Below are positions 2,418 to 63,100 of a stretch of DNA of 64,000 nucleotides, in pieces. The stretch comes from a virus. Its lineage: Duplodnaviria > Caudoviricetes. The stretch spans positions 32,001 through 96,000 of IMG/VR virus record IMGVR_UViG_3300015360_000023; one strand, 5' to 3'. The notes beneath the pieces are model-generated. The model was given only the letters and a program-made list of their open reading frames with translations, made no database searches and was not told where the DNA came from. Numbering within the stretch: the first letter of the stretch is position 1; the number at the start of each line of letters is the position of its first letter. Position numbers and translations under genes: made by a program.

Positions 2418-3101
2418 ATGTCTCTAAAACTACTACAACCAGGTACCCAACCATTGGGTCAATATGACGGTCTTGACTCTGAAGTTCTTACTCTAAAGGG
2501 TGGAGAAGTTGTTACTTTAGTTAACAGTGCTCTATCTGCAAATGATAAGGCTGCTAAGGATTCTTTCGACGGTTACTCTAACCCAAGCGGTCTTCCAGGT
2601 CGTCCAGTTGTCACTAAGACTCTTAGCGCAACTTCTCGTCCATTGTTCTTGGCTGATGAAGGTATCACTGGATACGGCACTCTATTCGGCTCTGTAGTCG
2701 GTGGAACTGTTGGTCAAGTTGTTACTGGCGGTGCGGTCCTTGGACCTCACACTGCAACCGGCTCTGGCAAGGTAACTTGCTGGGATAAACCAGGTCTTTA
2801 CGCAGTCTCCCTTGATGCATGCGATACAAACGCAAGCACGGGTCTTCAACCAACTCATGCAACTCTAACCACGGGTATGCCACTTTACTTCACCTCTGCT
2901 GGTCTATTGACTCCAACCATTGCTTCCTCTCCAGGTGGCGCAGGTCCAGTCGTAGCTCGCTTCGTCGACTTCGAGACCTCCGGTTCTCTAGTTACTACTC
3001 AATCCAGCATGGTCGCTGCCCTAAACAGCCCATCCGGTCAAGCAGCAACTACTAGAAGCTTTGCATTCGCAACCTTCTATTTCGCACCACCAGTTGCCTA
3101 A
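2418..3101 (+). CDS. Capsid decoration/cement protein (227 aa)
   Basis: Immediately upstream of the MCP; AGGA SD; small beta-rich Gly/Thr/Ala-rich protein; codon usage like the MCP. Confidence 0.7.
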   Translation: MSLKLLQPGTQPLGQYDGLDSEVLTLKGGEVVTLVNSALSANDKAAKDSFDGYSNPSGLPGRPVVTKTLSATSRPLFLADEGITGYGTLFGSVVGGTVGQVVTGGAVLGPHTATGSGKVTCWDKPGLYAVSLDACDTNASTGLQPTHATLTTGMPLYFTSAGLLTPTIASSPGGAGPVVARFVDFETSGSLVTTQSSMVAALNSPSGQAATTRSFAFATFYFAPPVA

Positions 3102-3117
3102 GTAACTGAATAATTCA

Positions 3118-3167
3118 AGCGTTTCTTGGATTGAGTTTCAAGAAACGCTCTATCACACGCGAGTGTG
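3118..3167 (+). promoter_or_regulatory. Structured intergenic leader between decoration and MCP genes (two hairpins)
   Basis: AGCGTTTCTTG(3118-3128)/CAAGAAACGCT(3139-3149) perfect 11-bp stem; CACAC-GCGA-GTGTG (3154-3167) GNRA hairpin. Confidence 0.6.
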
Positions 3168-3208
3168 TCGCTGGTAAGACTGGCAAAAATTCCACTAGGA
3201 GATTATTT

Positions 3209-6887: not shown

Positions 6888-7640
6888 ATGAGCAGCGAAA
6901 GTGAATTTGGATATTCATTAAAATATAACACACATTTTATTGTAAGGAATATTACGGGGACACCTGCATCTATGCTTCATCTACAGGGAGATAATCCCGC
7001 TATTCCGGAACCATATAGATCTGCTATTCATTATTTATCTCCTAAAAAAGCAGTAAGTATTTTTAATTATCCTATTAACCCAGGGCAGACTAGGGATTTA
7101 TTACAGATTCCTGGAATTCAAGAATCTGATATTAGAGCGTCTCTTCTTAAAGGCGTAATAAGACACAAACTTTTATGTGGAGACATTGAGTTAGTATCTA
7201 GTAATATTGATCTTCTTCAAGCTAGCCCAGAACAGCGCGACTGGCTTCATAGTTTTGGATTTGATGACGGTGTAATGGTCAAGTGCGATCAATTACATGA
7301 AGATGTATTTACGTGTATCGATGGCTACATCACAGCAAATCATCCAGGTGGTGGCGGGACTCTTTATTATTTATGGAGACAAGAAATTCCATTAATTGGA
7401 TTAAGAAATGGCATTAATAGAACATTCTTTACACCAGATAAGTTTCTTAATGGCTTAACACTAGCTGGAGATCGTTTTCATATTCAAATAAAGCATAATG
7501 GTAAAGATTTATATGAGGGAATTGATTATACTATCAGTGAGTCTTCTGGTCCTGGAACTGGGTATGACACAATCAATATGATCTCTCTAACGCCAGTCGG
7601 CCATAGTTTATTGTTTGCTACATATGCCATAACTGCATAA
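6888..7640 (+). CDS. Putative virion structural protein (250 aa)
   Basis: C-terminal G.RNG.N.TF...NGK.LYEG.DYTI beta-domain typical of phage surface proteins; N-terminal FIVRNI region resembles 18523-18936. Confidence 0.55.
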   Translation: MSSESEFGYSLKYNTHFIVRNITGTPASMLHLQGDNPAIPEPYRSAIHYLSPKKAVSIFNYPINPGQTRDLLQIPGIQESDIRASLLKGVIRHKLLCGDIELVSSNIDLLQASPEQRDWLHSFGFDDGVMVKCDQLHEDVFTCIDGYITANHPGGGGTLYYLWRQEIPLIGLRNGINRTFFTPDKFLNGLTLAGDRFHIQIKHNGKDLYEGIDYTISESSGPGTGYDTINMISLTPVGHSLLFATYAITA

Positions 7641-7668
7641 TTAGGCAATCAATTTGTAAGAATAATAT

Positions 7669-7682
7669 AATAATTAGGTATA
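7669..7682 (+). promoter_or_regulatory. Putative late promoter motif AATAA-TTAG-GTATA (variant copy at 7651-7664)
   Basis: Recurrent intergenic motif. Confidence 0.5.
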
Positions 7683-7738
7683 GTAGTACATAATTAAGAA
7701 GATTTGATGTAAGTCAACCTCGTAAATAGGATACAACA

Positions 7739-9235
7739 ATGGTTTCAACTCGTTTAAATGCATTGGACCAAGCGCTAGATATCGCTGGTTCACTTACTCA
7801 AAGCGCTACCGCTACGTTAGCTAACGAACCTCTTGGTTTGGGAGCTGCTCTTTCCGGTCAAACTGGCGCAACTGCCTCCATCACCACCTTCTCCGGTGGT
7901 TTGGTTACTTTCACTGGTCTAACTGGTATGACCGCTGCTTCCAGAGGTAATTTCCTTACCGTTACTGGTGCGGCTTCTGCTGGCAACAATGGTACTTTCT
8001 TAATCGCTGAATTCGTTTCAGCAACCTCTGTCCGTGTTGCTAACGCATCCGGTGTTGCTTCCGATGCAAACAGCGGCGCCATCTCTTGGACCGAAAGACA
8101 ACCATACGCTCTAGAAGACGACCTAAACTTTGTTCGTACTGACCGTGCAGCAATCAAGGGTGTCGCATTCTCCGCAGCTATTCCAACTTATCAGCGTCCA
8201 ACCGCAGTTGGTACTAACGTTCCAGCTAACTTATCCAACATCGCAAGCAAGACTTTAGATGCGCACGCATGGGTTATCAATAGAAAGTTCCCTGCTGCAA
8301 CTGTTGCTTCTACTGATACTTTTGATACTATCACTAGCGGCGGCAACTTAAAGCATGCTGATGCAACTAATAGAACTGGTGTTCCTATCCAGGACGGTGC
8401 AGACGCAGGCGCTCACGAAGCTACTTACGTAGAAATCATCAATCCAGCAACTGAAGCAGCCCTTCAAATTGTTGGTGGTGCTAATGACGGTTACAGAATC
8501 TTCGGTCGTACCAGAGCAGGAGCATCTACCTCTCCAAACAGCGTAGAAATTGAATTTAGAGCAGTTCCACCAGGTTCTCCTCTATCTGCCTCTATTGCTT
8601 ATACTTGGGAAGCTTATCAACCAACTACAGTTGACTATTACTACGGTTTCCGTGAGAGAGCAGACCAACTAACTGAAACTTCATTTAGAACTGTATTGAG
8701 CAACGGTATCGTTGGTGATGCGGACATGCAACAAGATATTAACGACATTCGTACCACCGTTGGTATTGGTGATAACGTTACTAGCTTGGCTGGCCTTCTA
8801 ACTAACACGGGTAACTTCTTCCCATTCGTCAACTTACCAGACGGCACTCCATCAGTTGTTGAAGCTTTCAACACTCTTAATGCTCAGATTGGTAACCGTG
8901 ACTACACTGGTGCTATTCTTGTAGACGGTCAGACCATCACTGCATCCTTGCAAGCATTATCTAACGCTATCGCTGGTGCAACGGTTGTTCGTACAGTTGA
9001 ACGTCTTGTAGCAGATATTAACGCAGGCACTCCTCATACCATTCCAGGAGCACAGACCTATACTGTTGACGGTTCCTTTAACGGTCAAAACATGTGGGTT
9101 TTCGTTCGCGGAACCTTACAAGATCCTGGCCCAGTTGTTGATTATAATAACTATGAAGAGACCAGTACTACAAGCGTTACTTTCTATGCTAAAGTAAAAG
9201 CTTTCGATCATATTAACTATATGATCTACGCCTGA
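7739..9235 (+). CDS. Abundant virion surface/whisker-like structural protein (498 aa)
   Basis: Ala/Thr/Gly-rich beta domains; AGGA SD; capsid-like codon usage. Confidence 0.6.
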   Translation: MVSTRLNALDQALDIAGSLTQSATATLANEPLGLGAALSGQTGATASITTFSGGLVTFTGLTGMTAASRGNFLTVTGAASAGNNGTFLIAEFVSATSVRVANASGVASDANSGAISWTERQPYALEDDLNFVRTDRAAIKGVAFSAAIPTYQRPTAVGTNVPANLSNIASKTLDAHAWVINRKFPAATVASTDTFDTITSGGNLKHADATNRTGVPIQDGADAGAHEATYVEIINPATEAALQIVGGANDGYRIFGRTRAGASTSPNSVEIEFRAVPPGSPLSASIAYTWEAYQPTTVDYYYGFRERADQLTETSFRTVLSNGIVGDADMQQDINDIRTTVGIGDNVTSLAGLLTNTGNFFPFVNLPDGTPSVVEAFNTLNAQIGNRDYTGAILVDGQTITASLQALSNAIAGATVVRTVERLVADINAGTPHTIPGAQTYTVDGSFNGQNMWVFVRGTLQDPGPVVDYNNYEETSTTSVTFYAKVKAFDHINYMIYA

Positions 9236-9243
9236 TATAGTAT

Positions 9244-9483
9244 GTGAGTATGGATAAGCCAGATCTCACAATTACACAAGTTGAAGATCCCCTAAACAGG
9301 TGGTGTTCTTCCGGTCATGTCGCTCCCGAAACTTTTAAGTTAGAGGGGCCAGATGGCAAGGAAGGACCCACCCGTTTTTTTAAGATTGGTGGACATGGGA
9401 TAAATGGTATTTATTGTGAGCCTTGCTTATGTGTAGCAAGTCATTTAGGTAAAATTAAAAGGGAAGCTAATAAAGGTAAGTAA
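9244..9483 (+). CDS. Small Cys/His zinc-finger-like protein
   Basis: CSSGH...CEPCLC; start is GTG9244 or ATG9250. Confidence 0.55.
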   Translation: MSMDKPDLTITQVEDPLNRWCSSGHVAPETFKLEGPDGKEGPTRFFKIGGHGINGIYCEPCLCVASHLGKIKREANKGK

Positions 9484-9485
9484 TC

Positions 9486-9881
9486 ATGACATATTCTGAA
9501 GATATTATTAAGTTACGTAAGAGAGTATTAGATGCTGTTGCAGTTGGTGTAGTTGATTCTAATTTAAAAGATTTTTATGAAGCTACATTGTTGCAAATTA
9601 TGAATGAGTCCGAGAGGCAAAGACAAAACGCTGTAGCTCAAGCTGAGACGCTTAGAAAGCAAGCAGCAGTTTGTGATGGTCAAGCTTCTGGTTATTCAGC
9701 TATGAGCAGTATGGTTTACAATGTATTAAATGCTTACATTGTGCAAGCCGAGCGCACTCAAGCTCAAGAAGCTGAGCAGGCTGCAAAAAGAGCAGAAGAG
9801 CAGGCATTTCAAGCTCCAGAAGTGGAAGTTGAAACTGATCTAGAAACAGAAGAATCTAAAAAGAAAACTAAGAAGAAGTAA
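9486..9881 (+). CDS. Coiled-coil hypothetical protein (131 aa)
   Basis: Gln/Ala/Glu-rich helices, basic C-terminus. Confidence 0.6.
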   Translation: MTYSEDIIKLRKRVLDAVAVGVVDSNLKDFYEATLLQIMNESERQRQNAVAQAETLRKQAAVCDGQASGYSAMSSMVYNVLNAYIVQAERTQAQEAEQAAKRAEEQAFQAPEVEVETDLETEESKKKTKKK

Positions 9882-9906
9882 ATCAATAGTTTTGCATCTA
9901 TAGAGG

Positions 9907-10659
9907 ATGACACTCTCAAAATCAGACTTTAGAGATGCAGATTTAGTTGATTCTCATGAATTAGCTTCTGACGGCTATACGTCTTATAAAACAACTGCCG
10001 TAACTTCGACAACCTCCGGAACAAAAACCGTTGAGGTTTCACCTAGTAGCGATATTTTTGGCTTAATTTTTGATGCAGATGCGCCTGTCTCTGTCGGTGA
10101 TCGTGTACGTTTAGTTGGCACCACAGGTGGTGCCGATGGATATTATACAATTGCATCTGTGGTAGATAATGATACCTTTACAGTATTAGAGAATATCAAT
10201 ACTTCTACTGGTGGTAGTGCCGTGTTTATTTATCGTCCGGGTGCGTCTTTAGTTGGATTTGATCCAACTGGATTAGCTGTAACTACAGCTAAAAATATAC
10301 AAGATGCTCTTAAAGATGTTGCAAATAATGCATCTGGTATTAGTGCTAATGTACATAGAGCATTAAGACAATTAATTCATTTTATTGATGAGGGTCCAGC
10401 CGAAGGATTTGCAACTGGAGCTTATAGAACAATGTTACCTGCATTAAGTCCATTTCCAACATCATTCATTTGGTGGGAGTCAATCGCTCAGACAGAAAAA
10501 ATTGTTGAGAAAACCTATACCTATAACCCAAATAAAACTGTTAGCCAGGTAGTGTGGCAAATGTATGATACAGATGGAGTTACTATATTAGTTACAGTTA
10601 CAGATGTAATTACATATTCAGGTATATTTGAGACGAGTAGAACTAGGAGCATAGTGTAA
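9907..10659 (+). CDS. Putative virion structural protein (250 aa)
   Basis: GAGGA SD; preceded by AATAG-TTTT-GCAT (9885-9898); beta-barrel VGDRVRL...GYYTI domain; TAATG coupling to next gene. Confidence 0.6.
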   Translation: MTLSKSDFRDADLVDSHELASDGYTSYKTTAVTSTTSGTKTVEVSPSSDIFGLIFDADAPVSVGDRVRLVGTTGGADGYYTIASVVDNDTFTVLENINTSTGGSAVFIYRPGASLVGFDPTGLAVTTAKNIQDALKDVANNASGISANVHRALRQLIHFIDEGPAEGFATGAYRTMLPALSPFPTSFIWWESIAQTEKIVEKTYTYNPNKTVSQVVWQMYDTDGVTILVTVTDVITYSGIFETSRTRSIV

Positions 10660-12989
10660 TGGCTAATGAATCACCAGCCTCAATTTTATTTGACCGTGAT
10701 GGCTATGATTTAGCTATTGCGCATGGCGATTCTATTACTGCTGATCAGCCTGGTTTTTTAGCTATTGGTAAGGATGGTTCTACCGCTCGTATTATCACTC
10801 TTGATTCATCCGGACGTTCTGTAGTTGTAGGAGCTGGTTCAGCGGGCTCTCCTGCGGGCGGCTTGATTACCATTCAGGGAGATGCTGCTGGCACACCCCT
10901 TCCTACCTCTATTGCCTCACTACCTTTGCCATCAGGCGCAGCTACTGAAGCAACCCTGGCTACTAGGTTAGCTGAATCTACATTCACTGCTCGCATTAAT
11001 ACTTTGGGTCAGAAGACTATGGCCAATTCAACGCCAGTAGTTTTATCATCTGATCAATCTACCCTTCCAATTAGCGCAGCTTCTTTACCACTTCCTTCTG
11101 GTGCTGCCACCGAAACAACTTTACTTACACTATTAACTGCATCTACTTTTACTACCAGAATTAACACTCTGGGTCAGAAGACGATGGCTAATAGTACTCC
11201 CGTTGTTATTTCTTCCGATCAATCTACAATAACAATTACTGGCGCCGTCACTGTTACCGGAACAGTCACTTCCAATCAAGGAACGCCCGCCGCTTTAGCT
11301 AATGCTTGGCCTATTAAAATAAGCGATGGCTCTAATTATGCTCCTTTAACTAATGCAGCTCCCGTTGGAAACGAACAAGGTTTAGTAGTAAGAAATATTC
11401 CATCTGGAACGCAGGTTATCTCTGGAACTGTTACAGCAACCGTATCTGGAACGGTTACCGCCAATCAAGGTACACCTGCTTCACTAAGCAATCCATGGCC
11501 AGTTCAATTATCGAATGGCACTAATACTCCGATAATTACTAATACTACACCAGGTGGTTCTGATCAAGCTTTGGTTGTAAGAAATATACCGTCTGGTACA
11601 CAAGCTATTTCTGCGGCTTCTCTGCCATTACCAACGGGGGCGGCCACCGAGGCAACATTAGCTACTAGGTTAGCGGAATCTACATTCACTACTCGTATTA
11701 ATACTTTAGGACAAAAGACTATGGCTAATTCTATGCCTGTAGTTATTGCCTCCGATCAAACTACATTGGCTATTACTGGTTCAGTTTCGGCCACTCAAAG
11801 CGGAACTTGGACTGTTCAGCCTGGAAATACAGCGAATACTACTCCGTGGTTAACTACTATTAGTCAAGGAGGTAATGCAGCCACTGTAACTGGCGCTAAT
11901 GCACTTAAGGTAGATGGTAGCTCTGTTACTCAGCCCGTTAGCGGAACTGTTACGGCTAATATTGGCACTTCCGGCTCATTAGCTCTTGATGCATCTATTA
12001 TAGCACAATCACTTATAGATAATAATGCGTTTACTGATGGTGTTACTAGAGTTCAACCAGTTGGATATATTTTTGATGAAGTAGCTGGTACAACTCTTAC
12101 TGAAAATGATGCCGCGGCAGCTAGAATCGATTCTAAACGCGCTCAAATTCAAGTAATTGAAGATGGAACTACTAGAGGCACAAGAGCTACGGTTAAAGCA
12201 GCTAGCACTGCCCCAGTATCTGGTGATACTTCATTAGTTGTCGTATTAAGTCCAAATCAACCACCTATTCTAGTCACAACATCTCCAAGTAGTTCAACTC
12301 CGCTTCTTGCTTTTGGTGATATTGCTTTAGCAGCTATTACAACCGTAGCATTACGTCGTACTACTTATACCGAGCAAAGCGTTAATTTTACTGGATCAAT
12401 TGTTTCATCATCGGCAAATGATTCATCCGCAGGTACAGGCGCACGTACAGTTCGTATTTATTGGATGAATCAGGCAGGCGCCACAACTGGATTTGAAGAT
12501 GTTACTCTTAATGGAGTTACTCCAGTTAATCTAGTTACTTCAACTAAATGTTTTATTGAGGCTATAGAGGTCTTAACAGTTGGTAGTACTAGATCTAATG
12601 CTGGAATTATTACTTTGAAAACGGGCGCGGCAGGAGCTGGCACAACTGTTGGAACTATTGGAGCAACAGATAACATTACATTTTGGGCCCATCATTATGT
12701 GAAATCAGGACTTACCTGTAATGTAACGGGTATCCTTATAGGGTCTAACGTTACAAACAGTTCCGGTTCGTGTATTGGGTCTCTTCGTTCACAAGTATTG
12801 CCTGTTGCAGATCAAGTAGATAAGCAGGTTTCTGACGGAATTACAGTAGCTGGATTAGATAGTTCGGTATATCGTTCTTATGGTTCTCAGATTCAAGTAG
12901 CTGGCCCGGCACGTATTACTTTAATTGTTACCACTGCAACGGGTTCTGCATTTAATTATCGTGGCTCATTTGATGCCTATGAAAGCTAA
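10659..12989 (+). CDS. Fibre-like repeat protein with C-terminal AGTGART domain (776 aa)
   Basis: Three ~50-aa LPLPxGAATE...INTLGQKTMANS.PVV repeats and two NQGTPA repeats; terminal SSANDSSAGTGARTV domain. Confidence 0.75.
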   Translation: MANESPASILFDRDGYDLAIAHGDSITADQPGFLAIGKDGSTARIITLDSSGRSVVVGAGSAGSPAGGLITIQGDAAGTPLPTSIASLPLPSGAATEATLATRLAESTFTARINTLGQKTMANSTPVVLSSDQSTLPISAASLPLPSGAATETTLLTLLTASTFTTRINTLGQKTMANSTPVVISSDQSTITITGAVTVTGTVTSNQGTPAALANAWPIKISDGSNYAPLTNAAPVGNEQGLVVRNIPSGTQVISGTVTATVSGTVTANQGTPASLSNPWPVQLSNGTNTPIITNTTPGGSDQALVVRNIPSGTQAISAASLPLPTGAATEATLATRLAESTFTTRINTLGQKTMANSMPVVIASDQTTLAITGSVSATQSGTWTVQPGNTANTTPWLTTISQGGNAATVTGANALKVDGSSVTQPVSGTVTANIGTSGSLALDASIIAQSLIDNNAFTDGVTRVQPVGYIFDEVAGTTLTENDAAAARIDSKRAQIQVIEDGTTRGTRATVKAASTAPVSGDTSLVVVLSPNQPPILVTTSPSSSTPLLAFGDIALAAITTVALRRTTYTEQSVNFTGSIVSSSANDSSAGTGARTVRIYWMNQAGATTGFEDVTLNGVTPVNLVTSTKCFIEAIEVLTVGSTRSNAGIITLKTGAAGAGTTVGTIGATDNITFWAHHYVKSGLTCNVTGILIGSNVTNSSGSCIGSLRSQVLPVADQVDKQVSDGITVAGLDSSVYRSYGSQIQVAGPARITLIVTTATGSAFNYRGSFDAYES

Positions 12990-16760: not shown

Positions 16761-17114
16761 ATGGCTTTTAAGAACATCAAGAAAACCCAAGGTAGGGATT
16801 TTAACTTCTGGAATTCAACCGCTGTAAGCTGGGCGCAGTTTGGGGCACCAGATGGCTATACCCTTCTTGATGGCTATGGGCCTGATTTGGTTATTACTTT
16901 TCCAACTCAAGGCATCATGTTCACTAATGAAACTTCAGCAAGCGTTGTAGAGTATTCGTTTAATGGATCTACGATTCATGGAGTTTTGGATGGAACTGCC
17001 GGCAGCACTACTCGCGTAGTTATGTTTGATAATCGTGTAGCTTCTTTGATTTGGTTTAGATTAAAATCAGGCGGCACAGCAACTATAACGACCACCGCGT
17101 GGGGAATACGATAA
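16761..17114 (+). CDS. Small beta-sandwich virion-type protein (117 aa)
   Basis: GGAG SD; preceded by AATAA-TTCT-ACATA (16731-16744); VEYSFNG..IHG...IWFR pattern; two DGY. Confidence 0.6.
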   Translation: MAFKNIKKTQGRDFNFWNSTAVSWAQFGAPDGYTLLDGYGPDLVITFPTQGIMFTNETSASVVEYSFNGSTIHGVLDGTAGSTTRVVMFDNRVASLIWFRLKSGGTATITTTAWGIR

Positions 17115-26483: not shown

Positions 26484-26485
26484 CA

Positions 26486-39136: not shown

Positions 39137-39141
39137 ACTAA

Positions 39142-43869: not shown

Positions 43870-43892
43870 TCTAACTCCCCTATAAACAAATA

Positions 43893-43936: not shown

Positions 43937-43946
43937 GGAGTTAAAT

Positions 43947-44986: not shown

Positions 44987-44990
44987 ATCA

Positions 44991-47240: not shown

Positions 47241-47248
47241 GGAGCAAA

Positions 47249-48199: not shown

Positions 48200-48211
48200 G
48201 TAAGGATAATA

Positions 48212-51200: not shown

Positions 51201-53368
51201 ATAGAATGCCAGGCTCTATTTTCTATAGAATGATGTTTCTAAAAAAGTCTACAGGATTACAGGTATTTCCTCAATTTCTAGATGATTTGTTTGGAGATCA
51301 GATAAAGACACTTACACAGAGAGTTGAAATTTTAGAAGACCAAATCAGATTAGATTGCGCAATATTAGGTATTGGTTCGGCTGCCGATGGTACTCCCGAT
51401 CCAGATTTTATTGCAGATGGGAAGGCTGTTGCCTTTCTTACCAATTCAAAAGCAACATCAAATAAAGGTGAGCCATTTAACTTTATCTCTAATACTAATG
51501 GAGTTATTACAGATATAATTACTGCTTTAGATGCTGCCCACCCTTTAACTAGGGAAGAGCTAAAGCATAATGAAACTTTTGCAAATATAACAAATCAAGT
51601 TACAAAAGTAAGTCAGATATTTCCTAATACACAGAGATTTCAAGTAGTGTTAGATGCCATCATAACTACTAAATTAGCACTGGCAGGATATGGTATTCAA
51701 GATATCACTCCATTTAATAATAACAATCGTATTGATAAATTGATTCAAAGAATTCAAAATAAGTCAGGTCAGAAAATTTCTAGAACTGCCTTCATAAATG
51801 CCAATGACATTTTTAATAATGGGCAACCTGCCGCTTCAGCCGGGCCATCCATTGACGTCTTTAAAGTAACTGAGGAGTTGGCTGATAAAATTGCCGATCG
51901 CCAAAGGGCTCTCAAATTATTATTCTCTGCCGTTACAAATGCAGTTGAAGCTCGTTCTTTGGATGATGACAGTAGCACAGCCAGCAGGCTATTAACGCCA
52001 GGCGTATATGGTAATTCTCATACTCCAGAAATCTTTGAACATATGATCGAAGATGAAACCTATGACGATTATGGTCCTGGTTCTGGTAAGCGATACATCA
52101 TTAAACGCGCCCAAATTAGAAGCTTAAATATCAGTGAGACTCCACCAGATTATACCTCAATAACTGTTATTGGACAGATGAATCCACTTAATCCAAATAG
52201 TACTTTACCATCCGATCTGAATGTATTTCCTGGTGGCGGCAATAGCATGGTAAGTGCTTCAGCTATTGATTATGATACATGGAGAAATTATGGGTTCAGA
52301 GAGCAGTCTCCACTTAATCTTCCGTTTCTAAGTGATCCAAATACACAATGTGCTCCTTACGCTAGTATGATGTTAAGCCGCGCTCGCCGTAATATTTTAA
52401 GAGGCTCAGTTACTATTTCTGGTAATGAATTTATGCAGCCAGGAGAAGTTATTTTCTTGGAAGATAGAGGAATGTTATTTTATGTTTCTTCCGTCAAACA
52501 TAATTTTCAATTTGGTAGTTCATTTACTACAACACTTGATTTAACTTATGGTCATACTCCTGGAGAATACATTCCAACTCCACTTGATATTGTTGGAAAA
52601 ATTCTTTATAAGAACAGAGATGTTGCCGGATTTGCTGTTCAAAGACAATCAAGCTCTACTAATGATAAAGATATTGGAATTGTTTTAAGAGATCCAAAAT
52701 CTCTTAAGCCATTTAATAAAGGTGGAGATCCAAAAGAAACTGTAACTGCTTTTAGTGCCGCTAATACCGCCACTATTAACAACATACTTTATACAGCAGC
52801 CTATTTGATTAATGCAAATAATACTAAAGGTAACAACATCAAGGCAACTGCGGAACTTAGAATTTATTTTGATAAAAGCAATACCCTTGATTCGGATCTT
52901 GAAACATTTGCTGGTGAAGTAATGACTTCATTAACTGTTGCGGGTCAAGGACCAAAACAAAGTTATAATAAAAATGACGGAACTTCAAGTAATCCTGTTT
53001 TATCTAAAGATAGCGTAAAGGTAGTGCCGGTTGATTTGGCAGATGAAGCAGTTTTTAATTCACCATCTCAAAAAGCAATTGATGCTTGTAGAAACTATCT
53101 CTCTATGGCCAGTATGGCTGGTGGGGGAGCTTCTTCACCAGGCGCCCCAAGTGCCAGTGGATTTGGCTCAGCTTTAGCTGGCCTAGGCTCCGCACTTACT
53201 TCTAACCCATTTTCATCTAGTGGTGGTGATCCAGTTAAGTCTGGAGATAAAGAAAATTCATTAAAACAAAGAGCGCAGTTAAAAACCGTATTGTACAAAT
53301 ATATAGTAGATATCTGGATCAAGTTTGAAGAAGTTCCAGAAGCCGTAGCTAAGGCTCAAGGCAAATAA
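48212..53368 (+). CDS. Baseplate hub protein (gp27/gpD-like) with large insertions (1718 aa)
   Basis: EVFADTQGHIRVR.P and G..TI.G.....PG.......Y.SSVKH.F.....FTT.L.L hub motifs; position before spike. Confidence 0.7.
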   Translation: MSFLGKLANQLNSQFSVGENQNHTLDTDGQKYGVLGDFAKKFDHSSERRYVEEGYLRRDPFNTDPKQFEVLMQEPNATVLVKKRMFSSVNENYRPDFMDADEKLYFKAMKILFQNKCRQISALEKLSKIQKITESVGSVADQLMPIIISLSDEANAGFPDLLGGGKNDLFGQINNPGDVSKFAKVIDRVRRVYAFNTTNSLTTWITDPTNMFQSQFGQGTGVIEITNFTNLNTSATLDIKTPGNFSLNIVDPYEAMLITEYDIERALSDATNSFYNHKIFQFGKNSADQIIADTTTRLNQLRALRKVSPISFKINPDTLLGRRVVAVVDRQGLEIPFNYNGGGTGGGGASASSFAGIGGLGGGVDVSDAYLIHGEILGLDGLDTERKGHLGPDSNIKALFPESELSVFGRLVTAIFSKLSLEANSRGAFVTSNKLTNYARRKLRFNFSGKLIIQPMDTVHIYMNSKSRFDGKLLSGLNNMFTGAGILQNLNKTITDLKNSFDTVFNPGGSVNLQVEKAAFVGSDFPNYLWSVIRNQFVNEKEGTHVFAGIVQGASDSWSDGKFTVSVNGTDNSGYFEMGKINFKPSSDVFNGSLFDPLTPFKSKFDSISSVGGGDSPTLLLENQYLLGTSQDSDSALVKFKLGPNAGKPARSDNVDQDVHIDESTRALSKVFYAPDGLVYKWKEGIGTLVQFGSSIEANNPNRVGNQSIGKEPFAGQDIMNVLSLLITAQPYNFANYWKAVSNFDGFQRDPQSQQDSAYSFFDSLKRDLAKSNSVWGNFIPFKTLSISEESFAGMMSSQFSYVRDNKDLDAKLKKLADAKAAARIFANGKAIATADTSKYNANQLQAQAEADKLEEDTTALIARLQEGDKFNNSRTQFGSDVSYDFNEFLNAGNPNKQLSDAATRRLLRRQINYLTRRMSYNVRANEDKNLFIVDDSYDKDYDIAAFEQSLNSEGLKLFNNEFNSVKEKIVQTADLLNMEVFADTQGHIRVRSPQYNRMPGSIFYRMMFLKKSTGLQVFPQFLDDLFGDQIKTLTQRVEILEDQIRLDCAILGIGSAADGTPDPDFIADGKAVAFLTNSKATSNKGEPFNFISNTNGVITDIITALDAAHPLTREELKHNETFANITNQVTKVSQIFPNTQRFQVVLDAIITTKLALAGYGIQDITPFNNNNRIDKLIQRIQNKSGQKISRTAFINANDIFNNGQPAASAGPSIDVFKVTEELADKIADRQRALKLLFSAVTNAVEARSLDDDSSTASRLLTPGVYGNSHTPEIFEHMIEDETYDDYGPGSGKRYIIKRAQIRSLNISETPPDYTSITVIGQMNPLNPNSTLPSDLNVFPGGGNSMVSASAIDYDTWRNYGFREQSPLNLPFLSDPNTQCAPYASMMLSRARRNILRGSVTISGNEFMQPGEVIFLEDRGMLFYVSSVKHNFQFGSSFTTTLDLTYGHTPGEYIPTPLDIVGKILYKNRDVAGFAVQRQSSSTNDKDIGIVLRDPKSLKPFNKGGDPKETVTAFSAANTATINNILYTAAYLINANNTKGNNIKATAELRIYFDKSNTLDSDLETFAGEVMTSLTVAGQGPKQSYNKNDGTSSNPVLSKDSVKVVPVDLADEAVFNSPSQKAIDACRNYLSMASMAGGGASSPGAPSASGFGSALAGLGSALTSNPFSSSGGDPVKSGDKENSLKQRAQLKTVLYKYIVDIWIKFEEVPEAVAKAQGK

Positions 53369-55389
53369 TGACTAATCCTAATAAATTAAACGAAGAGGTT
53401 GGCCTATTACGAAGAGGCTGGATTCATGCTTTTAATGAAGCAAAGGGAAAGATCTTTGTCAAGCTTCTTAACTCACCTGTCTCTGGTAGTAACCCGCCAG
53501 TAACCGTTGATGCTCCTCATGGTTTATTTTATAATAATGGTATTTATGTTGGCACCGCCCCAGATATAGGCACGCCCGTTGTTGTAGGCTTGGGTAGTGG
53601 TGGTGAATATTACTTCGTATCATTCTTGTCTGAAAATAAAAATAAAGTTCCTACTTTAACGCCAGGCGAATTGCTTATTAGTTCTAATGATAGAACAAGA
53701 ATAACTCTCAACACATCTAACCATATTACTATTGGTTCAGATGGAAATAAAATTCAAATAAACACTACTCAAAATTATATGAGTAGAAATTTCCATAACG
53801 ATTATAAGTTTACTCAAGCCAGTAGAAAAATAGATGGCGTGATTAAGAGAGACTTAATTAGGAATACAAATTTCAGTCAAAATTCCAAGTTGGAAGGAAC
53901 TGGGTACGAACCAGAGTATCACATTATCTCAATGGATCCAACGGTTACCTCTTCTCCAATTATTTCTGGCTCAAGTAAGAATCCTCCTTTCGTAGAAAAT
54001 AGAGAAACCATTTATGAGTTTCAATATAAATCTAATATTGCAGACGATCTAAATGAGTCTACTATTTATTCAGACACTGGAACCAAAAAAAGAAAAGACT
54101 ATAGCTATCCAAGCCGCCGAGTCAGCAGAGCAGATACTCTTAGTTTAAGCTTAGTTTCTCCAAATTATTTGATGGAAAGCATCAAGGGAACTGTTGTAGA
54201 TATCTTTGGTAATATTTTAGATTTAAATAGATTTCCATTACCTATTGGTAAAGATCAAAACACTATTAAGTCTGATAAGAGTACTGACAAAGTTAAATCT
54301 TTTCTAAATATCAAGGCTCTTCAAAGAAAAAGTTTAGCGTATCATTTTGAAATCAATACTAGAAAAGATTTAAGCGGAAAGAGCGGTACCGTTGCTCTAC
54401 CAGATATTACTTCTAGCAAAGACTACGCAAGAGATAGAAGTCGCTTTTTCATTGATATTGATAAAGAAGGGCAGTTTAAAATTAATGTTCCAGCTTCTAG
54501 CGAGGCCGGTAATATTCCATTACTAACTCGTTATGAAAACTATTCTACATATGGACCAGAAGACAATGGTAATCCAGATAAGATAGTTCAATTGGAAAAT
54601 AATCAGGATATTTTCCATGATTGTTTTGGTGCTCAGGCTATTAAGCCAGTTCCAAAAGGATTTCAGCCAATAGATAAAGATAATCGAAGAGGCTCTATCG
54701 CATTAAAAACGGGAGATGGTGCCAACGCCGCTCCTAAGGACAGACTTACTAATCAGCACATTAGTCATGGTATGGTTTACCATGACATTCTTCAGACATG
54801 CTTCGTTCATCAAAACAATGATTATTTGAACTTTCAAGCAGGTGAAGTTATCCCATTAACTGTAGATTTATCTACTATTAAGAAACTTGAAAATATTGTT
54901 TCTCCTACTATAATTACGTCTGGAAACAGCGCTAATGGTGGTGGAAGAAGTGGCTCTATTAATTTCGATGGTTCTATTGAATTAAACATTGGAGCTAACA
55001 CTGTTGATAGGCAATCAGTATGGCTTGATACCGCAGGTGGTATGGTAGCAAATATTGGACGAGATAAAAATGGAAGAAGTATTATTGCAGCTACAGGAGG
55101 AGATGTCTTTCTTCAAATTGGTGGATTTGGAATCGCAGCAGATAGTAGATTCACTGAAGACAATAATATCAAAGAAGGTGTTCTAGATCTAAGAATAATG
55201 GGTTCTGGAGGCTATTGCCATATGCTTCGAATTGATAGTCAGGGTGTAACTGTTTTGACTCCAGGAGCATTAAGAATACATTCTAAAAAAGATATGACGC
55301 TTACTTCAGATAAAAACATTAGAATTGAATGCAACACACTTATTCTACAAGAAAGAATGCATTTGAAAGGCTTCGGAGGATCATCATGA
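53368..55389 (+). CDS. Baseplate central spike (gp5/gpV-like, 673 aa)
   Basis: N-terminal OB-like domain (P..GTPVVVG), C-terminal beta-helix repeats (LRIHSKKDMTLTSDKNIRIECN). Confidence 0.7.
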   Translation: MTNPNKLNEEVGLLRRGWIHAFNEAKGKIFVKLLNSPVSGSNPPVTVDAPHGLFYNNGIYVGTAPDIGTPVVVGLGSGGEYYFVSFLSENKNKVPTLTPGELLISSNDRTRITLNTSNHITIGSDGNKIQINTTQNYMSRNFHNDYKFTQASRKIDGVIKRDLIRNTNFSQNSKLEGTGYEPEYHIISMDPTVTSSPIISGSSKNPPFVENRETIYEFQYKSNIADDLNESTIYSDTGTKKRKDYSYPSRRVSRADTLSLSLVSPNYLMESIKGTVVDIFGNILDLNRFPLPIGKDQNTIKSDKSTDKVKSFLNIKALQRKSLAYHFEINTRKDLSGKSGTVALPDITSSKDYARDRSRFFIDIDKEGQFKINVPASSEAGNIPLLTRYENYSTYGPEDNGNPDKIVQLENNQDIFHDCFGAQAIKPVPKGFQPIDKDNRRGSIALKTGDGANAAPKDRLTNQHISHGMVYHDILQTCFVHQNNDYLNFQAGEVIPLTVDLSTIKKLENIVSPTIITSGNSANGGGRSGSINFDGSIELNIGANTVDRQSVWLDTAGGMVANIGRDKNGRSIIAATGGDVFLQIGGFGIAADSRFTEDNNIKEGVLDLRIMGSGGYCHMLRIDSQGVTVLTPGALRIHSKKDMTLTSDKNIRIECNTLILQERMHLKGFGGSS

Positions 55390-55742
55390 AAAAATTGAAT
55401 ATCGTTATTTATAACAAACTACTTGCTCAGGCCGAAGAGGCTAAAGCACAAGGCCTTACTAAGTTGGCCTCCGGAATTTTAGAAGCCATTGGATCTCATC
55501 CCAATGAAGAAGAATCTGAATACTCTTATAAGCAACTTCAGGATGATGTTCATCGAGATTTATGGAAAGTAGCTAGTCGTTTATTACATTATTACGACGT
55601 TCAAAGTTTAGATGCAGAAAAGATTGATGCCGAGATTCTTGTTTGGGCATCTAAGTTAGTCGATGGCCTAGAAGAAACTATTGGAGTAGACGAAGTCTTA
55701 GTGGGTGCACTGGAGCCAAAAGTTCCAGGACAAGATAAGTAA
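55386..55742 (+). CDS. Small acidic helical protein (118 aa), KLA motif
   Basis: ATGA coupling gives start 55386; KLLAQAEEAKAQGLTKLA. Confidence 0.6.
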   Translation: MKKLNIVIYNKLLAQAEEAKAQGLTKLASGILEAIGSHPNEEESEYSYKQLQDDVHRDLWKVASRLLHYYDVQSLDAEKIDAEILVWASKLVDGLEETIGVDEVLVGALEPKVPGQDK

Positions 55743-55762: not shown

Positions 55763-57934
55763 ATGAGTCCTTGTGATCCGAATGATGTATCAGTTAATGT
55801 TCCGGATGGCCCGAGTGGTCCAGCCATTCCTGGGTTTGGTACGCCTTTCGCATTAAAACTGCCCAATTTGAATCCTTTTCCAGATGGATTCCCTGAGAAC
55901 TTATTAGAGCTATTAGAGAAGTTACAATTTTTGATTCCACCGGGCGCCCTAAAAGCACCCTTGAATCCAAATTTCGGCAAAGATGTGTTCGATGCTATCA
56001 TGAAGCTATTGGACCAGTTCATGCCATTCTTAATGTTGTATAAATTCTTTCTTCCTATTCTGGAACTTATTATTTGTATTATTGAAGTGCTATGTGCCTT
56101 GATGAATCCATTCAAACTTATTAGAGCTTTGAATAGATTGTTTACTCGTTGTATTCCGGCCTTCTTGAATCTGTTTCCGATTTTTGCTTTAATTATTATG
56201 ATTATTTCTTTGTTGTTGCTTATCCTAGCACTCATCGAATACATTATCTCTCAAATCATTAAGCTCATCCTAATGATTCTAAGAAATATCAATGCGCTTA
56301 TCAAAGCCTTTGATGATGGTGACGAAGACGGTGTCTTAGCGATTGTTCAAAAGCTAGGATCTCTTCTATGTATGTTCCAAAATTTGTTTGTACTATTCTC
56401 TATTTTTAATATCATCATTCAGGTTATTAAAGATATTCTTTCCTTGCTATTCCATATTCCTCCTTGTGAAGATGGTGATCCAAGCGATGAAGATAACTGC
56501 TGTACTCCCGATGTATGTCCAGCCATTGTTAAGCAACAATATCAGAGATCCACTGGTCACTTCAGATATCTACCGCAGGTGTCTGTCGCCACATCCTTGT
56601 CGTTACCTGCCGCCTTTGGTGGTGCATTTAATTTTGATGTTCGTCCAGAGAGTATGCAGTTGTTCGATCTTGAACAAGGGTTAAATGAACAGTTCAGAAA
56701 TATCTTTGATGCTAATGATGTAACTATTTCTCCAAAGCCAGTCTTCTTCCCAACAGATGCGACGTACACCAATACGACTGATCCGCGTCAGGCCCCTTAT
56801 GTCATTGACATGAGAATGTACTACAATCCAGCAAGCTGGGGTCGTCAAGGTTCTGCTCGCTTTATCAAATTCACTAACTGTATATTGACTAAGGTTCCAA
56901 GCACATCATTAACTAACGGTGACTTATCTATTACGGATATTTATAATGCAGTTGGAATTCCAGCAGGCGGCATCGGCTTCGAAGATGACGGTAGCACTCT
57001 ATTTGGATTTGCTGCTGACGGAGTAACTCCAACGCTAATCCCAGCTACCCTTGAGAACTTTTTCCATATGCCGGGATTTGCTTCATCAAATCCACATCTA
57101 AAGATTACTGATGGGTACCAATTCAATAATGTTGAATATATTTTCAAGCCAAATATCGCTCCTCTTCTACAGAAGAACATCGTTACTCTTGGATGTGTTC
57201 CATCTATTGCAACCAATAGATCTTTTATCAATAATATCTTTGCTGGCGATATTGCCCTTAAAACTCAATTACTAGGCAGACTAGTTAATAGCCCTGCATT
57301 CCCAAGTCCCGCAGCCGCTCAAGAGTGTTTAGCTACCGCTATTACAGGCCTAAGAGCCAATATGACTGCCGCAGGAGTTGCGGTATTTCAGGCAACTTGC
57401 GATATCTGTCTTGATAAACTTAGAACAGATACTAATAATGCTTTAGGTCAAATGGTTGGAATTGGATTCGATCCATGTAAGAGCACAATCGTAGCCTCAC
57501 CAAGCCAGCAGTTCACCACATTGCCAATCGTAGTGACGGTCAACCTAAATGAAAGAAATGGTCTACCACTAAGTACCGGAGTTTCTACTATAGTTGGTAA
57601 TGACTTAGCGGCCCGTATTAAGGGTCACGTTACTTTTGGAAATGTTGGTAACTTTACTTATGATGGATACCAAGCATTCACTGCAAATATTACTAGCGCT
57701 ACGCCAGGTAATGGAACCCTAATGGTTTCTTTTGATAATCAAACTTTCTGTACTAACACTATTCCAGATGATGTTGATGTATCTCCTACTCACGACTTGC
57801 AAGAAATTCCATACAGATTCATTTACGCTCCATTCACTTTGGGCGGCGGAGTTGGTACGGGCGAAGGCGATACCGATGGCCAGCCAAGAAGAGATGCGGG
57901 TGACCAGGCCAAAGAGAGTGGCGGGGATAACTAA
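55763..57934 (+). CDS. Baseplate-region protein with long hydrophobic helical segment (723 aa)
   Basis: Very hydrophobic stretch around aa 75-230; Cys clusters; between spike and gp25. Confidence 0.65.
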   Translation: MSPCDPNDVSVNVPDGPSGPAIPGFGTPFALKLPNLNPFPDGFPENLLELLEKLQFLIPPGALKAPLNPNFGKDVFDAIMKLLDQFMPFLMLYKFFLPILELIICIIEVLCALMNPFKLIRALNRLFTRCIPAFLNLFPIFALIIMIISLLLLILALIEYIISQIIKLILMILRNINALIKAFDDGDEDGVLAIVQKLGSLLCMFQNLFVLFSIFNIIIQVIKDILSLLFHIPPCEDGDPSDEDNCCTPDVCPAIVKQQYQRSTGHFRYLPQVSVATSLSLPAAFGGAFNFDVRPESMQLFDLEQGLNEQFRNIFDANDVTISPKPVFFPTDATYTNTTDPRQAPYVIDMRMYYNPASWGRQGSARFIKFTNCILTKVPSTSLTNGDLSITDIYNAVGIPAGGIGFEDDGSTLFGFAADGVTPTLIPATLENFFHMPGFASSNPHLKITDGYQFNNVEYIFKPNIAPLLQKNIVTLGCVPSIATNRSFINNIFAGDIALKTQLLGRLVNSPAFPSPAAAQECLATAITGLRANMTAAGVAVFQATCDICLDKLRTDTNNALGQMVGIGFDPCKSTIVASPSQQFTTLPIVVTVNLNERNGLPLSTGVSTIVGNDLAARIKGHVTFGNVGNFTYDGYQAFTANITSATPGNGTLMVSFDNQTFCTNTIPDDVDVSPTHDLQEIPYRFIYAPFTLGGGVGTGEGDTDGQPRRDAGDQAKESGGDN

Positions 57935-59628: not shown

Positions 59629-59678
59629 CCTCTAGATTTACCTAATAATTTAGCATAAGTAAACGGGAGCGTTAGAAG

Positions 59679-60110
59679 ATGTCGTTTGACCTGAAATTAC
59701 GTGCTGGTGACTTAGTTCTCACAAATGGAGCCTTAGTAACAGCCATAGATAGTGAAAAACTAATTCAAGATATTTTGAAGATTTGCCTGACAACGGCCGG
59801 ATCTAATCCAATTCATCCATGGTATGGTTCTTTTATTTCAAGAACTATTGTGGGTAATCCAAATTACAGCTCTATTTTAGTTCAAATTGGTAAGTCTCAG
59901 TTAACTACTGCGCTTCAAAATTTGAAGGATTTACAAGACTTACAGATTAAATCCTTTCAAAGAGTTAGTGCTGATGAACAAATAAGTGCTATTTCGGATA
60001 TATCTATAAATACAGATAGAGTCGATCCAAGGCTATTTAATGTTGTAGTAAGCGTACTTTCTAAAGGGTTGAAACCAGTAACAACCGCTTTCAGAATATC
60101 AACCATTTGA
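59679..60110 (+). CDS. Baseplate wedge protein, gp25/gpW-like (143 aa)
   Basis: DLKL..GDL...G.L.......KL.QDI.K...T..G....HP.YGS pattern; AATAA-TTTA-GCATA at 59644-59657. Confidence 0.85.
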   Translation: MSFDLKLRAGDLVLTNGALVTAIDSEKLIQDILKICLTTAGSNPIHPWYGSFISRTIVGNPNYSSILVQIGKSQLTTALQNLKDLQDLQIKSFQRVSADEQISAISDISINTDRVDPRLFNVVVSVLSKGLKPVTTAFRISTI

Positions 60111-60128
60111 GTCTATCTAAAGGTAAAT

Positions 60129-63100
60129 ATGGTCACAATACGCTCAGTAAACGAAATCATCTTAAGCTTGATAGACTACTACAGGTTAGCCCAACCTGAT
60201 TTAGATACCAAACCGGGCACCGTGGCTCGCGATTTGATGATCGACGGCCCTTCGAGCCAGCTTGCTTTGCTATATGACCAACTATCAAGCGTCTCTAGTC
60301 AGCAATCTATGAGACTTGTTATTGGTGCCGACCTGGACAAGCTAGCCAAAAACTTCGGAGTTATTAGAAAGCAATCTACTTCTGCTACAGGAGTCGCTCT
60401 ATTAACCTTTGCATCCATTAATGCACCTATTCCTATTAACACCGGAAGCTTAGTTATTTCTAATAATGGTTTTTCTTACTCTATTACTTCAGGAGTCTCA
60501 GTTACTCCTGGCTCTTCTAACTTCTATCGTTCAGTAGCTAGTAAATTTCAAGACCAACTAGATGCTGCCGGAATTAAAGATCAATATGCGGTTGAAGTTA
60601 CTGTCATAGCAACCACCGCAGGCTCTTCTGGTAACATTGGAACACTATCTCTAAATAGAACTAACGTCTCTGGCGTCTCCAACGTAACCAATATAAATTC
60701 ATTTACTGGCGGGACTGATCAAGAAGATGACTCTAACTTCCGTAATCGCGTCCTCGCGGCCTTTAGCGGGTCGAGCATAGGAACTGCCTTGGGCTACCTA
60801 AACACCGCCCTAGGTACCACTGGCGTGTCGGACGCGGCCGTTATTGAACCAGGCGATGCTCTAATGACCAGAGACGGCACCGTTGTCAGCATAGCTAGCG
60901 ACGGAACTCGTACTATTGTCTCAGAGGGCTCTGGAGGAAAAGTAGATGTTATTGTTCTAGGTTCTAGCTTAGTTCAAAATACAGATACTTTCATTTACAA
61001 AGATAAAAGCAACAACACAGATCCTACTAGTGTTAAAAATGATGTGGTCATTGGTCAAATTGCGGCTGATGTTAATAAAACTATTAACAGAAAAAGAATT
61101 GATGATCTTAAAGCTGGTCAAGTTCCAGCTCAACCAGTTAATGATATACTAACTGTTACTGGATCTATAAGCGGCTCCAATTTTATTGCCAAAACAACAG
61201 ATACTTATGGCAGAGTCTCTGGAAATTTTGAATTACTTAAAGATACTGGTGTTTACGGCGGCAGCCCTTTTGGATTTGATACGTTTCATTGGGTCTCCAA
61301 TAAAATTTCATTATTCAGTGAAGATAGAATTAAGAGCCAGTTCAACGGACAAGACCCTACAACATTTACTGATGTATTAGAGATTCCTCAAGTTCAACAA
61401 AGCCTTTCTATTACTAACGAAAACAGCATCGTTACTAGTGATAAATCTATTATTCAATTACTTCATACACCAGCTACTAGTATTACTAGAGTTTTCAATG
61501 TTAACACTGGTGAAAGATATATTATCACAGATCAAGATCTTGATGAGACCGGCGTATACAATACTACTGGACGTATTCAAATCTCTGGTAACACGCTACC
61601 ATCCACTAGTGACCTACTACAGGTAGACTATAGCTGGATCGTTAATTTTGATCAGCATTCCGATTATGATGGGTTAACCCAAACAAGTAATCCAAGAAAC
61701 GTTACAGATAGCATTGACTGGGGTTACTCTTCCGCCATTCATAATGAGCGAGTCAACTTTGTACTAACGGTTGGAGACAACTTCTTTACCGGAACAACCA
61801 GCCACCCAGTTGATACTGTGGTTTCTACCAATGTATTTACTGAGGTTGATGCTGCGGTTACCTTGGTTACTTCCGGAACTTATGTTAATAGGCTCTCTGT
61901 CGTTATTGATCATTTACCAGTAACTGTAGATAGCGTTGATCAGATAACTCTTAAGAATTCTAATATTGAAATTTACAATAGCGCTCAAGCAAACGGTAGT
62001 TTCACTGTAACTACCGAAGTAGTTGGTATTGAAATTCTATATGTATTAACGGTTATCTTACCAAATGATACGGTAGCTAAGGCTGGCGATACTGTTAGCG
62101 TTATTCTAAATAGCACTAATGTCTTTCACTCTGAAGAAACGGCCGGTAGTAGCAGCGGTACACAGATTACCATTCCAAGTTCTTTAATTAATACTACAGC
62201 TACTAACATCACCTTACTAGTAACTTACATTGCGAATATCACTGATTTGTTTGCGGCCTCTGTTACTGCCCTTCCATCGAGCAAGGTCGGCAATGGATTC
62301 AACCTATCTAACAACAACGGGTTCCCAAATTTTAGCTCGGCCAATACATCTGTTAGAGAGAATCAAATTGTTCAGCAAAACCTTAGCAATCAATATTATA
62401 TTGAAGTAACTGCGCCTAGTGCTGATTTCACCATTGCAGCTTCGCAAGTTGTTTCCATTATCAGACTATCTGACGGATATGAATTATGGTCGGCCAATCA
62501 TCCCGGAACCATCGATATTGGAATTTCGGGTAATTACCAATTTATTTTACCAGGTTTAAACACGCCAGCTACTGGGGACAGAGTTTTGGCCGTTTATTAT
62601 TCTACAGATATCAGAAGGTTTCAACCATTTAGTTTTAGCAACTCTTTGATTAAGACAAGGGTACATAACTTAGCTTATGTAGCTCCTGCCAATACAAAGT
62701 TTAGCGTTCCATTAAATAGTTTCACTAATGCCACAGGGTTATCTTTTTATGTTATTGAGCCTAATACAGATATTGTCTTGTTATCTGGTTCAGATGGCGT
62801 GTTAACTACCAGCATAAGCGGTAGTGCTAATTTCACCAGCTCTACTGTTGACTTTTCTGATCAAGTAGATATTACACATAAAAAGATAAAAATAGTAACG
62901 CCAGTTAGCGGACTTACTCGTTTGAATAACGATGGCGTTTATGATATTACTAGTTATACTTTGAGCGGTAATAGTTTGGTTATTACTGAGGTGTTAAGTA
63001 ATATAAATAAAGATAACATCTCTGTTATTAGAGTAGTTGATGGCAAGGAAGTTTGGGGTTATTCTGGAACTATAGATCTAGCTAACAATAGAATAACTTT

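Follow-up and report, generated by a model that had tools for sequence, protein, structure and literature searches.

The tripeptide Asp-Gly-Tyr (DGY) is enriched about tenfold over chance in the outward-facing virion proteins of one clade of huge environmental phages. It was studied in bases 32001-96000 of the 202,609-base virus record IMGVR_UViG_3300015360_000023 (G000), which comes from an uncultured phage. This whole 64,000-base stretch is called the window, and positions refer to it unless the genome is named. It is proposed, with a probability of roughly 40%, that DGY is a sequon for O-glycosylation of tyrosine, read by the phage's own soluble glycosyltransferases. Such a tag on outer virion proteins appears to be undescribed. 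A preliminary description of the window had known of no DGY sequon, and full-text literature searches likewise found no description of a DGY motif or sequon in phages.

The counts were made in 51 long open reading frames of the window, which amount to 20,634 amino acids. Tyrosine makes up 3.03% of the residues, and 36 of the 149 Asp-Gly (DG) dipeptides are followed by it (24%). The earlier hand count (36 among about 150, with tyrosine at a few percent) was thereby borne out, and the sites then listed (2568, 16851/16869, 26214/26232/26382, 35200/35212, 29751, 62472 and two in the tail sheath) are all rightly placed. When the residues were shuffled within each protein 5000 times, the mean number of DGY was 3.09 (standard deviation 1.74, maximum 12), and the binomial P for the observed number is 3e-22. 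No other tripeptide of the window exceeds its first-order Markov expectation as much as DGY does (36 vs 6.4, z = 11.8). Each of the five other orderings of these residues is seen 2-7 times. Over the whole 202-kb record, DGY accounts for 81 of 373 DG, and its near variants are not enriched (NGY 12, EGY 7, DGF 13, DGW 6). The second most over-represented tripeptide of the window is GGG.

Composition, a constraint on the DNA itself or repeated paralogous domains might be thought to produce such a surplus. A few sites are indeed paralogous: a DGYxLTxxxxDGYW module is found in three proteins, and two proteins of 117 amino acids are related to each other. However, when 63-residue windows were clustered, the 81 genome-wide sites fell into at least 54 unrelated contexts, so that neither paralogy nor one shared domain can be the cause. 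Similarly, the DNA motif GAYGGNTAY occurs 36 times on the plus strand, always in sense frame 0, never in sense frames 1 and 2, and twice in antisense. The DGY 9-mers are identical at just 7 of the 59 sites conserved between G000 and its relative G001. This frame specificity and synonymous divergence rule out a motif at the DNA level and agree with the earlier view, drawn from varied codons, that the selection acts on protein. Set beside the shuffles and the Markov expectation, an artefact of any of these kinds has a negligible probability and is excluded. An extended sequon was also considered and rejected. The flanks are almost uninformative, with proline depleted at +1, lysine and arginine depleted nearby and a mild x-N-P preference after the tyrosine.

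The share of DG that is DGY differs between the blocks of the record, as listed here.

Packaging and head-internal block: 1 of 38
Replication block: 1 of 46
Head-surface block: 6 of 39
Neck, tail and fibre block: 41 of 145
Second structural block: 27 of 62

The first two blocks lie at the tyrosine background (2-3% of DG). Even inside the tail block the motif is restricted: the putative inner-tail run (43156-55742) has none in 25 DG, against 41 in 120 for the rest of the block (Fisher p = 1.4e-4). When DGY is subtracted, the structural proteins carry 0.44-0.54 DG per 100 amino acids, compared with 0.36-0.45 in the other blocks; their surplus of DG is almost entirely DGY. The preliminary description had noted the absence of DGY from inner virion parts, and this inner-tail run bears it out, while the major capsid protein (MCP), with its single DG, is uninformative.

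The enrichment is shared with relatives. In G000, G001, G002, G004 and G005, 12-25% of DG are DGY, and four related records give 25%, 12%, 13% and 21%; in all but one of these, DGY is the top tripeptide. Among 80 loci around related capsid genes the share is 17%, and in a more distant complete genome it is 7.8% overall and about 20% in the tail region. Control phages lie at or near the tyrosine background (phage G 6.5%, T4 7.6%, phiKZ 5.4%, Rctr197k 1.5%, Tunturi_5 3.6%). An apparent 23% in four giant proteins of phage G comes from a repeated NGRHTDGYWYVRG module and is paralogous. A general trait of beta-rich phage structural proteins is ruled out by these five controls. Since the relatives are enriched and the controls are not, the enrichment is a property of one clade.

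For the MCP of G000 (3131-4222), the nearest deposited sequence is gp27 of Bacillus phage G, at 53% identity, and all others are remote. IMG/VR holds hundreds of relatives, of which the complete ones measure 430-480 kb, one with terminal repeats. A search for cultured relatives with the neck protein gave no match among 50,697 deposited phage records. Two other tripeptide patterns were seen during these comparisons. In Bacillus phage G (NC_023719.1), PIC and CPI are over-represented (36 vs 3.9 expected) through a repeated Cys-containing motif. In G002 (IMGVR_UViG_3300047462_000282), the top tripeptides are TGP, GPT, PTG and PQG, with 170-180 copies each, which points to very long, probably collagen-like Gly-X-Y repeat proteins that G000 does not have.

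Purifying selection acts on single DGY sites. When orthologues are aligned, 82-88% of the aligned DGY sites persist in the comparison with G001 and G005, and 53-56% in that with G002 and G004. For other DGx tripeptides the figure is 36-48%, though the flanks of DGY are the less conserved. At D, G and Y, the conservation is 0.79, 0.72 and 0.65, and at the flanks about 0.50. The sites are also repeatedly gained and lost. Of 53 sites compared over nine genomes, 5 occur in all nine and 20 in a single one. The neck protein family, with 113 full-length homologues (59-85% identity), carries 509 DGY among 997 DG (51%), spread over 24 alignment columns. One of these columns is invariant and many are patchy, with 2-23 changes per column on the family tree.

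The tyrosine hydroxyl is what selection keeps. With D and G unchanged, the DGY tyrosine has been replaced in 20 of 240 cases, 2 of them by phenylalanine. Other tyrosines of the same proteins have been replaced in 925 of 3065, 414 of them by phenylalanine (p = 0.002). In the neck alignment, phenylalanine makes up 1 of 57 non-tyrosine residues in DGY columns, as against 338 of 535 in other tyrosine columns. As the DGY tyrosine so seldom becomes phenylalanine, it does not serve as a generic aromatic residue. The motif is thus ordered, enriched, conserved above its flanks and not exchanged for its phenylalanine form, as in sequon-directed glycosylation. Taken together, the data call for a lineage-specific reader that recognizes just this tripeptide, in this order, on exterior proteins of the particle and needs the tyrosine hydroxyl.

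The sites in the window are given gene by gene below. The labels of the MCP, sheath, baseplate J and neck/stopper proteins were checked, and the remaining functional labels are putative.

2418..3101, plus strand: decoration-like protein directly upstream of the MCP; DGY at 2568 (residue 51)
6888..12989, plus strand: four head-proximal genes; DGY at 7320, 8486, 9970, 10135, 10698
16761..17114, plus strand: 117-amino-acid protein; DGY at 16851, 16869 (2 of its 3 DG)
19501..24266, plus strand: two fibre-like proteins; DGY at 19840, 19870, 20797, 22788, 22818, 23694
26130..27385, plus strand: a 117-amino-acid protein with DGY at 26214, 26232, 26382 (3 of 3 DG) and a 299-amino-acid protein with DGY at 26816
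29028..30992, plus strand: neck/stopper protein with FN3-like domains; DGY at 29085, 29751, 29955, 30078
31035..39963, plus strand: five structural genes; DGY at 31116, 32667, 34180, 34708, 35200, 35212, 35809, 38470, 39535
40109..43144, plus strand: tail sheath (Pfam Phage_sheath_1 and Phage_sheath_1C); DGY at 41339, 41660 (residues 411, 518)
43156..55742, plus strand: eight tail genes (putative tube, tape measure, hub), inner location inferred; 25 DG, no DGY
55763..57934, plus strand: baseplate-region protein; DGY at 57110, 57662
60129..63998, plus strand: baseplate J-like protein (PF04865, E = 9e-21), running off the window; DGY at 62472 (residue 782)

The sheath, baseplate J-like and neck/stopper genes are recognizable, and most other structural genes belong to no known family. 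With PHROGs and Pfam, most inner-tail and head-block proteins stay without a name; in the eight-gene tail run, PHROGs gives two proteins the label 'virion structural protein' and nothing more. The decoration protein and the MCP stand in the same gene order as gp26 and gp27 of phage G. The DGY of the decoration protein is kept in 59 of 61 homologues (52-76% identity), and at its residue 17 the DGL of G000 is DGY in 14 homologues. Similarly, of 10 homologues of gene 7739-9235, three have DGY at residue 250 and four at residue 396, where G000 has DGQ. Both fibre-like proteins have the DGYxLTxxxxDGYW module at the N-terminus. Gene 19501-22746 matches the glycine-rich domain ALK_LTK_GRD (E = 4e-9), and gene 37882-38628 matches Gly_rich_2 (E = 1e-4).

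In the sheath and the baseplate J-like protein, the sites stand outside the conserved cores. Those of the sheath lie away from its conserved C-terminal core (residues 817-1007), the protein also having an E1_FCCH-like insert at residues 591-651, and that of the baseplate J-like protein lies outside the Baseplate_J domain (residues 68-271). A domain of about 114 residues, with 54% identity, is common to the neck protein (residues 170-283, 29535-29876) and the sheath (residues 127-238, 40487-40822). It reads KLDGYANP in the neck and KLDANGNP in the sheath, so that, as had been pointed out earlier, the fold works without DGY. Shorter neck proteins (about 525 amino acids) in G001, G004 and G005 lack this domain, which suggests that it was copied between the neck and sheath genes.

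For the neck protein, an AlphaFold2 model (predicted local distance difference test, pLDDT, 78) matches the stopper and neck of phage 812 (Foldseek, probability 1.0). All four DGY lie in loops adjoining strands, the fourth (351-353) in a low-confidence stretch, residues 347-351 being below pLDDT 50. The surface placement first suggested for DGY is putative; in this one model, the sites are placed in loops. An AlphaFold model of the decoration protein (31 sequences) had a pLDDT of 44 and was unusable, and sequence searches with this protein and with the sheath gave no homologue with a solved structure.

This loop position would also suit a structural staple that needs no reader, in which the tyrosine hydroxyl bonds to the Asp two residues before it across the Gly turn and rigidifies exposed loops, for instance against proteases or drying, in particles that have to last outside the cell. 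Such a staple would account for the coupling of D, G and Y, for the avoidance of phenylalanine and for the persistence of the motif where certain glycosyltransferase genes (the GT2 pair described below) are absent, and some columns hold D-x-Y or D-G-x without the full motif. It is nevertheless unlikely. A generic stabilizer would be expected in phage G, T4, phiKZ and other phages and in the phage's own inner-tail and non-virion proteins, and all of these are at background. The domain common to neck and sheath does without it, NG, which makes the better type I' turn, is not paired with tyrosine, and the sites come and go among close homologues. A fold-intrinsic turn such as the tyrosine corner, with a fixed position that its fold needs, does not fit: one domain occurs with and without DGY, and the sites occupy 24 columns, most of them patchy, in one family and 54 unrelated contexts overall.

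It is a shade less likely still that DGY is a micro-site for docking or adhesion, where many weak, non-covalent contacts over the whole particle would hold either a surface polymer of the host or an accessory protein of the phage (a coat that can be removed, or a fibre anchor). The limitation to outer virion proteins, the strict tripeptide with its weak flanks, the need for the hydroxyl and the grouping of some sites in pairs or clusters (DGYxxxDGY, for example) would all fit this. However, no candidate partner was identified, and the very different folds and loop geometries, along with the freely shifting positions, suit an enzyme reading a flexible peptide better.

Candidates for such an enzyme are encoded in the phage itself. 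The preliminary description had seen no glycosyltransferase in the window. Three of them, together with a dehydratase, were found in a cluster 11.4 kb past its end, right after two giant fibre genes. The last of these, for a fibre protein of 1336 amino acids, ends at genome 107417, and the cluster begins 21 bases later at 107438. GT4 and GT2 denote glycosyltransferase families, and the cluster has the following order.

Genome 107438 onwards: a 259-amino-acid unknown protein, GT4, a 236-amino-acid GT2, an Fpg-like DNA glycosylase, a 335-amino-acid membrane-anchored unknown protein, a 282-amino-acid GT2 and RmlB

GT4, the two GT2 and RmlB span genome 108231-114055. RmlB matches dTDP-glucose 4,6-dehydratase (E = 4e-103), and no membrane-like segment is present in it or in the three transferases. 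The 335-amino-acid protein matches nothing but viral hypothetical proteins in an Atlas search. The cluster is syntenic in G001, G002, G004 and most of 64 loci, and GT4 is present in all four complete genomes searched. In phage G, no orthologue of any of these genes (GT4, the GT2 pair, RmlB) was found.

On the proposed tyrosine glycosylation, the clade would place and keep DGY on loops of outward-facing virion proteins for recognition in trans. The likely readers are GT4 and the two GT2 enzymes, with the dehydratase supplying a 6-deoxy-sugar precursor. A transferase would add the sugar to the phenolic oxygen of the tyrosine while the protein is in the cytoplasm, either ahead of assembly or as it proceeds. 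It would recognize its site by the flexible Gly together with the Asp at the second position before the tyrosine, and the particle would acquire a glycan coat anchored at points that are gained and lost over evolutionary time. The idea of a modification sequon had already been raised for the window. Its basis stands, with selection at the protein level, a subset of virion proteins, sites outside conserved cores and independence of the fold, while the tyrosine adduct stays hypothetical.

Other enzymes could act on the same tyrosine, through phosphorylation, sulfation, nucleotidylation, ADP-ribosylation or oxidative cross-linking by an unrecognized phage or host protein. The motif speaks for these as much as for glycosylation, most genes belong to no known family, and a PTP-like phosphatase motif occurs at genome 19210-19317 of G000. 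Still, these modifications are improbable, more so than either the staple or docking. Sulfotransfer_3, Fic and Hanks-type kinase (Pkinase) domains were not found in five near-complete relatives, and glycosyltransferases are the only recognizable clade-wide transferases. Of the enzymes that the preliminary description had suggested seeking in related phages, glycosyltransferases are therefore present, and Sulfotransfer_3 and Pkinase were not found. The ThyA-type hydroxymethylase PF00303 was not found in G000 and four complete or near-complete relatives, while control genomes match. The usual acceptor for DNA glycosylation is thus missing, and that route is unsupported.

The link between the transferases and DGY was also followed within the clade. 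Over 24 shared orthologues, the two complete genomes that lack both GT2 genes have the fewest DGY, 20 each where the others have 26-39, and neither has a private site. These two are sister taxa on the structural-protein tree and count as one event. In a wider comparison, 64 loci centred on GT4 were taken, the GT2 pair was scored within 10 kb, and adjacent fibres were counted. Loci without the pair have a fibre DGY/DG of 0.30, against 0.41 with it (naive p = 0.014). They fall in five places on the GT4 tree and lie below their sister group in four of the five. The association of the GT2 genes with DGY within the clade is, on these comparisons, weak. GT4 itself is present in every complete clade genome searched and, by construction, in all 64 loci. 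A complex prediction for GT4 with the 117-amino-acid protein that has three DGY scored 0.00; no controls were run, and it counts neither way.

Two observations were made on the transferase genes themselves. In a 433-kb relative, the orthologue of the 282-amino-acid GT2 (G008:C1:202265-203083) contains an in-frame TAA, and it may be a gene in decay, in a lineage beside the two genomes without both GT2. Further, L264 (G007) and L305 (G016) are sisters on the tree of 24 structural proteins, and their GT4 are respectively 71% and 44% identical to that of G000, which suggests that GT4 has been swapped between lineages.

Several points weigh against tyrosine glycosylation. Where both GT2 genes are absent, the fibre DGY/DG is still about 0.30, some ten times the background. 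Some lineages that bear GT2 are equally low (5-7 sites), and the association loses its significance when phylogeny is taken into account. Tunturi_5 carries GT2 genes without DGY enrichment. For GT4, the putative link with DGY rests on a single outgroup contrast, that with phage G. The targets of the transferases could as well be DNA, host polymers or small molecules. No tyrosine-specific transferase family was recognized, the modification of the tyrosine and the action of these enzymes on proteins are both putative, and the record appears to be about 47% of one genome.

A comparison with known systems places the proposal more exactly. Freeman et al. reportedly described, in 2023, the glycosylation of mycobacteriophage virions by phage-encoded glycosyltransferases (cited in PMC12619734). 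The virion glycans of these phages are reported at the C-termini of capsid and tail-tube subunits (PMC12619734). As in mycobacteriophages, the phage's own glycosyltransferases lie beside structural genes, here with a 21-base gap, and a glycan coat is proposed. Unlike in those phages, the MCP (1 DG) and the putative tube are without DGY, and the sites are internal loops of other proteins. They are scattered over neck, sheath, baseplate, fibre and decoration proteins, and the putative acceptor is tyrosine. Phages that glycosylate their DNA differ in having a 5-hydroxymethylpyrimidine pathway, whose PF00303 enzyme was not found here.

Short sequons are familiar from bacteria. The oligosaccharyltransferase PglB of Campylobacter reads D/E-X-N-X-S/T, and the general O-glycosylation motif of Bacteroidetes is D-(S/T)-(A/I/L/V/M/T). 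The Bacteroidetes system is treated in PMC8698959. DGY resembles both: it is short and ordered, an acidic residue stands at the first or second position ahead of the acceptor, and many unrelated proteins carry it. Those systems attach lipid-linked glycans to Asn, Ser or Thr outside the cytoplasm. In the phage the enzymes look soluble, the putative acceptor is tyrosine, and assembly is cytoplasmic. In Paenibacillus alvei, the S-layer protein SpaA is O-glycosylated on tyrosine through an adaptor that contains L-rhamnose (PMC2943079). SpaA is similar in having a tyrosine acceptor on a surface lattice and L-rhamnose from the dTDP-sugar pathway, which RmlB begins. It differs in being a cellular protein with about two sites and no defined sequon, modified by a membrane oligosaccharyltransferase during secretion, and the transferases of the phage have no membrane-like segment. 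Virion proteins are not secreted.

In enveloped animal viruses, the sequons of the glycan shield are gained and lost, and host-made N-glycans are attached at N-X-S/T. The phage clade is alike in that the number of putative acceptor motifs on loops predicted to be exposed is kept while their positions turn over. It differs in that the motif is DGY, and the conceivable selective agents are proteases, host defences and adhesion.

Some further genes were noted around the neck protein and elsewhere. Three conserved HxH motifs (HTHEI, GHNHP, GHTHT) stand at the C-terminus of the neck protein (30800-30992) and resemble the metal-binding HxH repeats of phage fibre tips. Some homologues of this protein (P0022, P0059, P0101, P0102) measure about 1070 amino acids and carry intein and LAGLIDADG domains (PF14528, PF13403, PF14890), which marks an intein inserted into a virion structural gene. 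Inside the neck operon, on the minus strand (27789-28403), lies an RNA 2',3'-cyclic phosphodiesterase of the 2H family (TIGR02258, E = 2e-11); the adjoining open reading frames of 129 and 226 amino acids gave no NCBIfam matches. Outside the window, at genome 114079-115440 and elsewhere, G000 encodes a TubZ-like tubulin, a class I release factor (PCRF/RF-1), ribonucleotide reductase, ThyX, a SET-domain protein, ArdC-like and PolyVal metallopeptidase domains and an FGE-sulfatase-like domain, which is a possible target fold of a diversity-generating retroelement.

In its full form, the proposal is that the environmental phages of one whole clade, with genomes of 430-480 kb, bear tyrosine-O-linked sugars at DGY on their neck, sheath, baseplate, fibre and capsid decoration proteins. 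Soluble transferases encoded by the phages would attach these sugars, and the sites would turn over as in the glycan shields of animal viruses. This is tentative, and a little less probable than the sequon itself. If true, it would be the first virion glycome of any virus to be linked through tyrosine and defined by a sequon. It would also be a new chemistry of protein glycosylation, with a tyrosine acceptor, a soluble cytoplasmic enzyme and a three-residue code, and such a compact pair of tag and enzyme might find use in glyco-engineering. Even without a modification, selection of this strength on one class of proteins in one lineage needs a reader or a chemistry that is yet to be described. 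Huge phages would, on the proposed glycosylation, dress not just their capsids but their tails and fibres with a coat of fast-evolving attachment points, and this would bear on the stability of phages in soil and water, on the recognition of hosts and on the escape from host or environmental attack.

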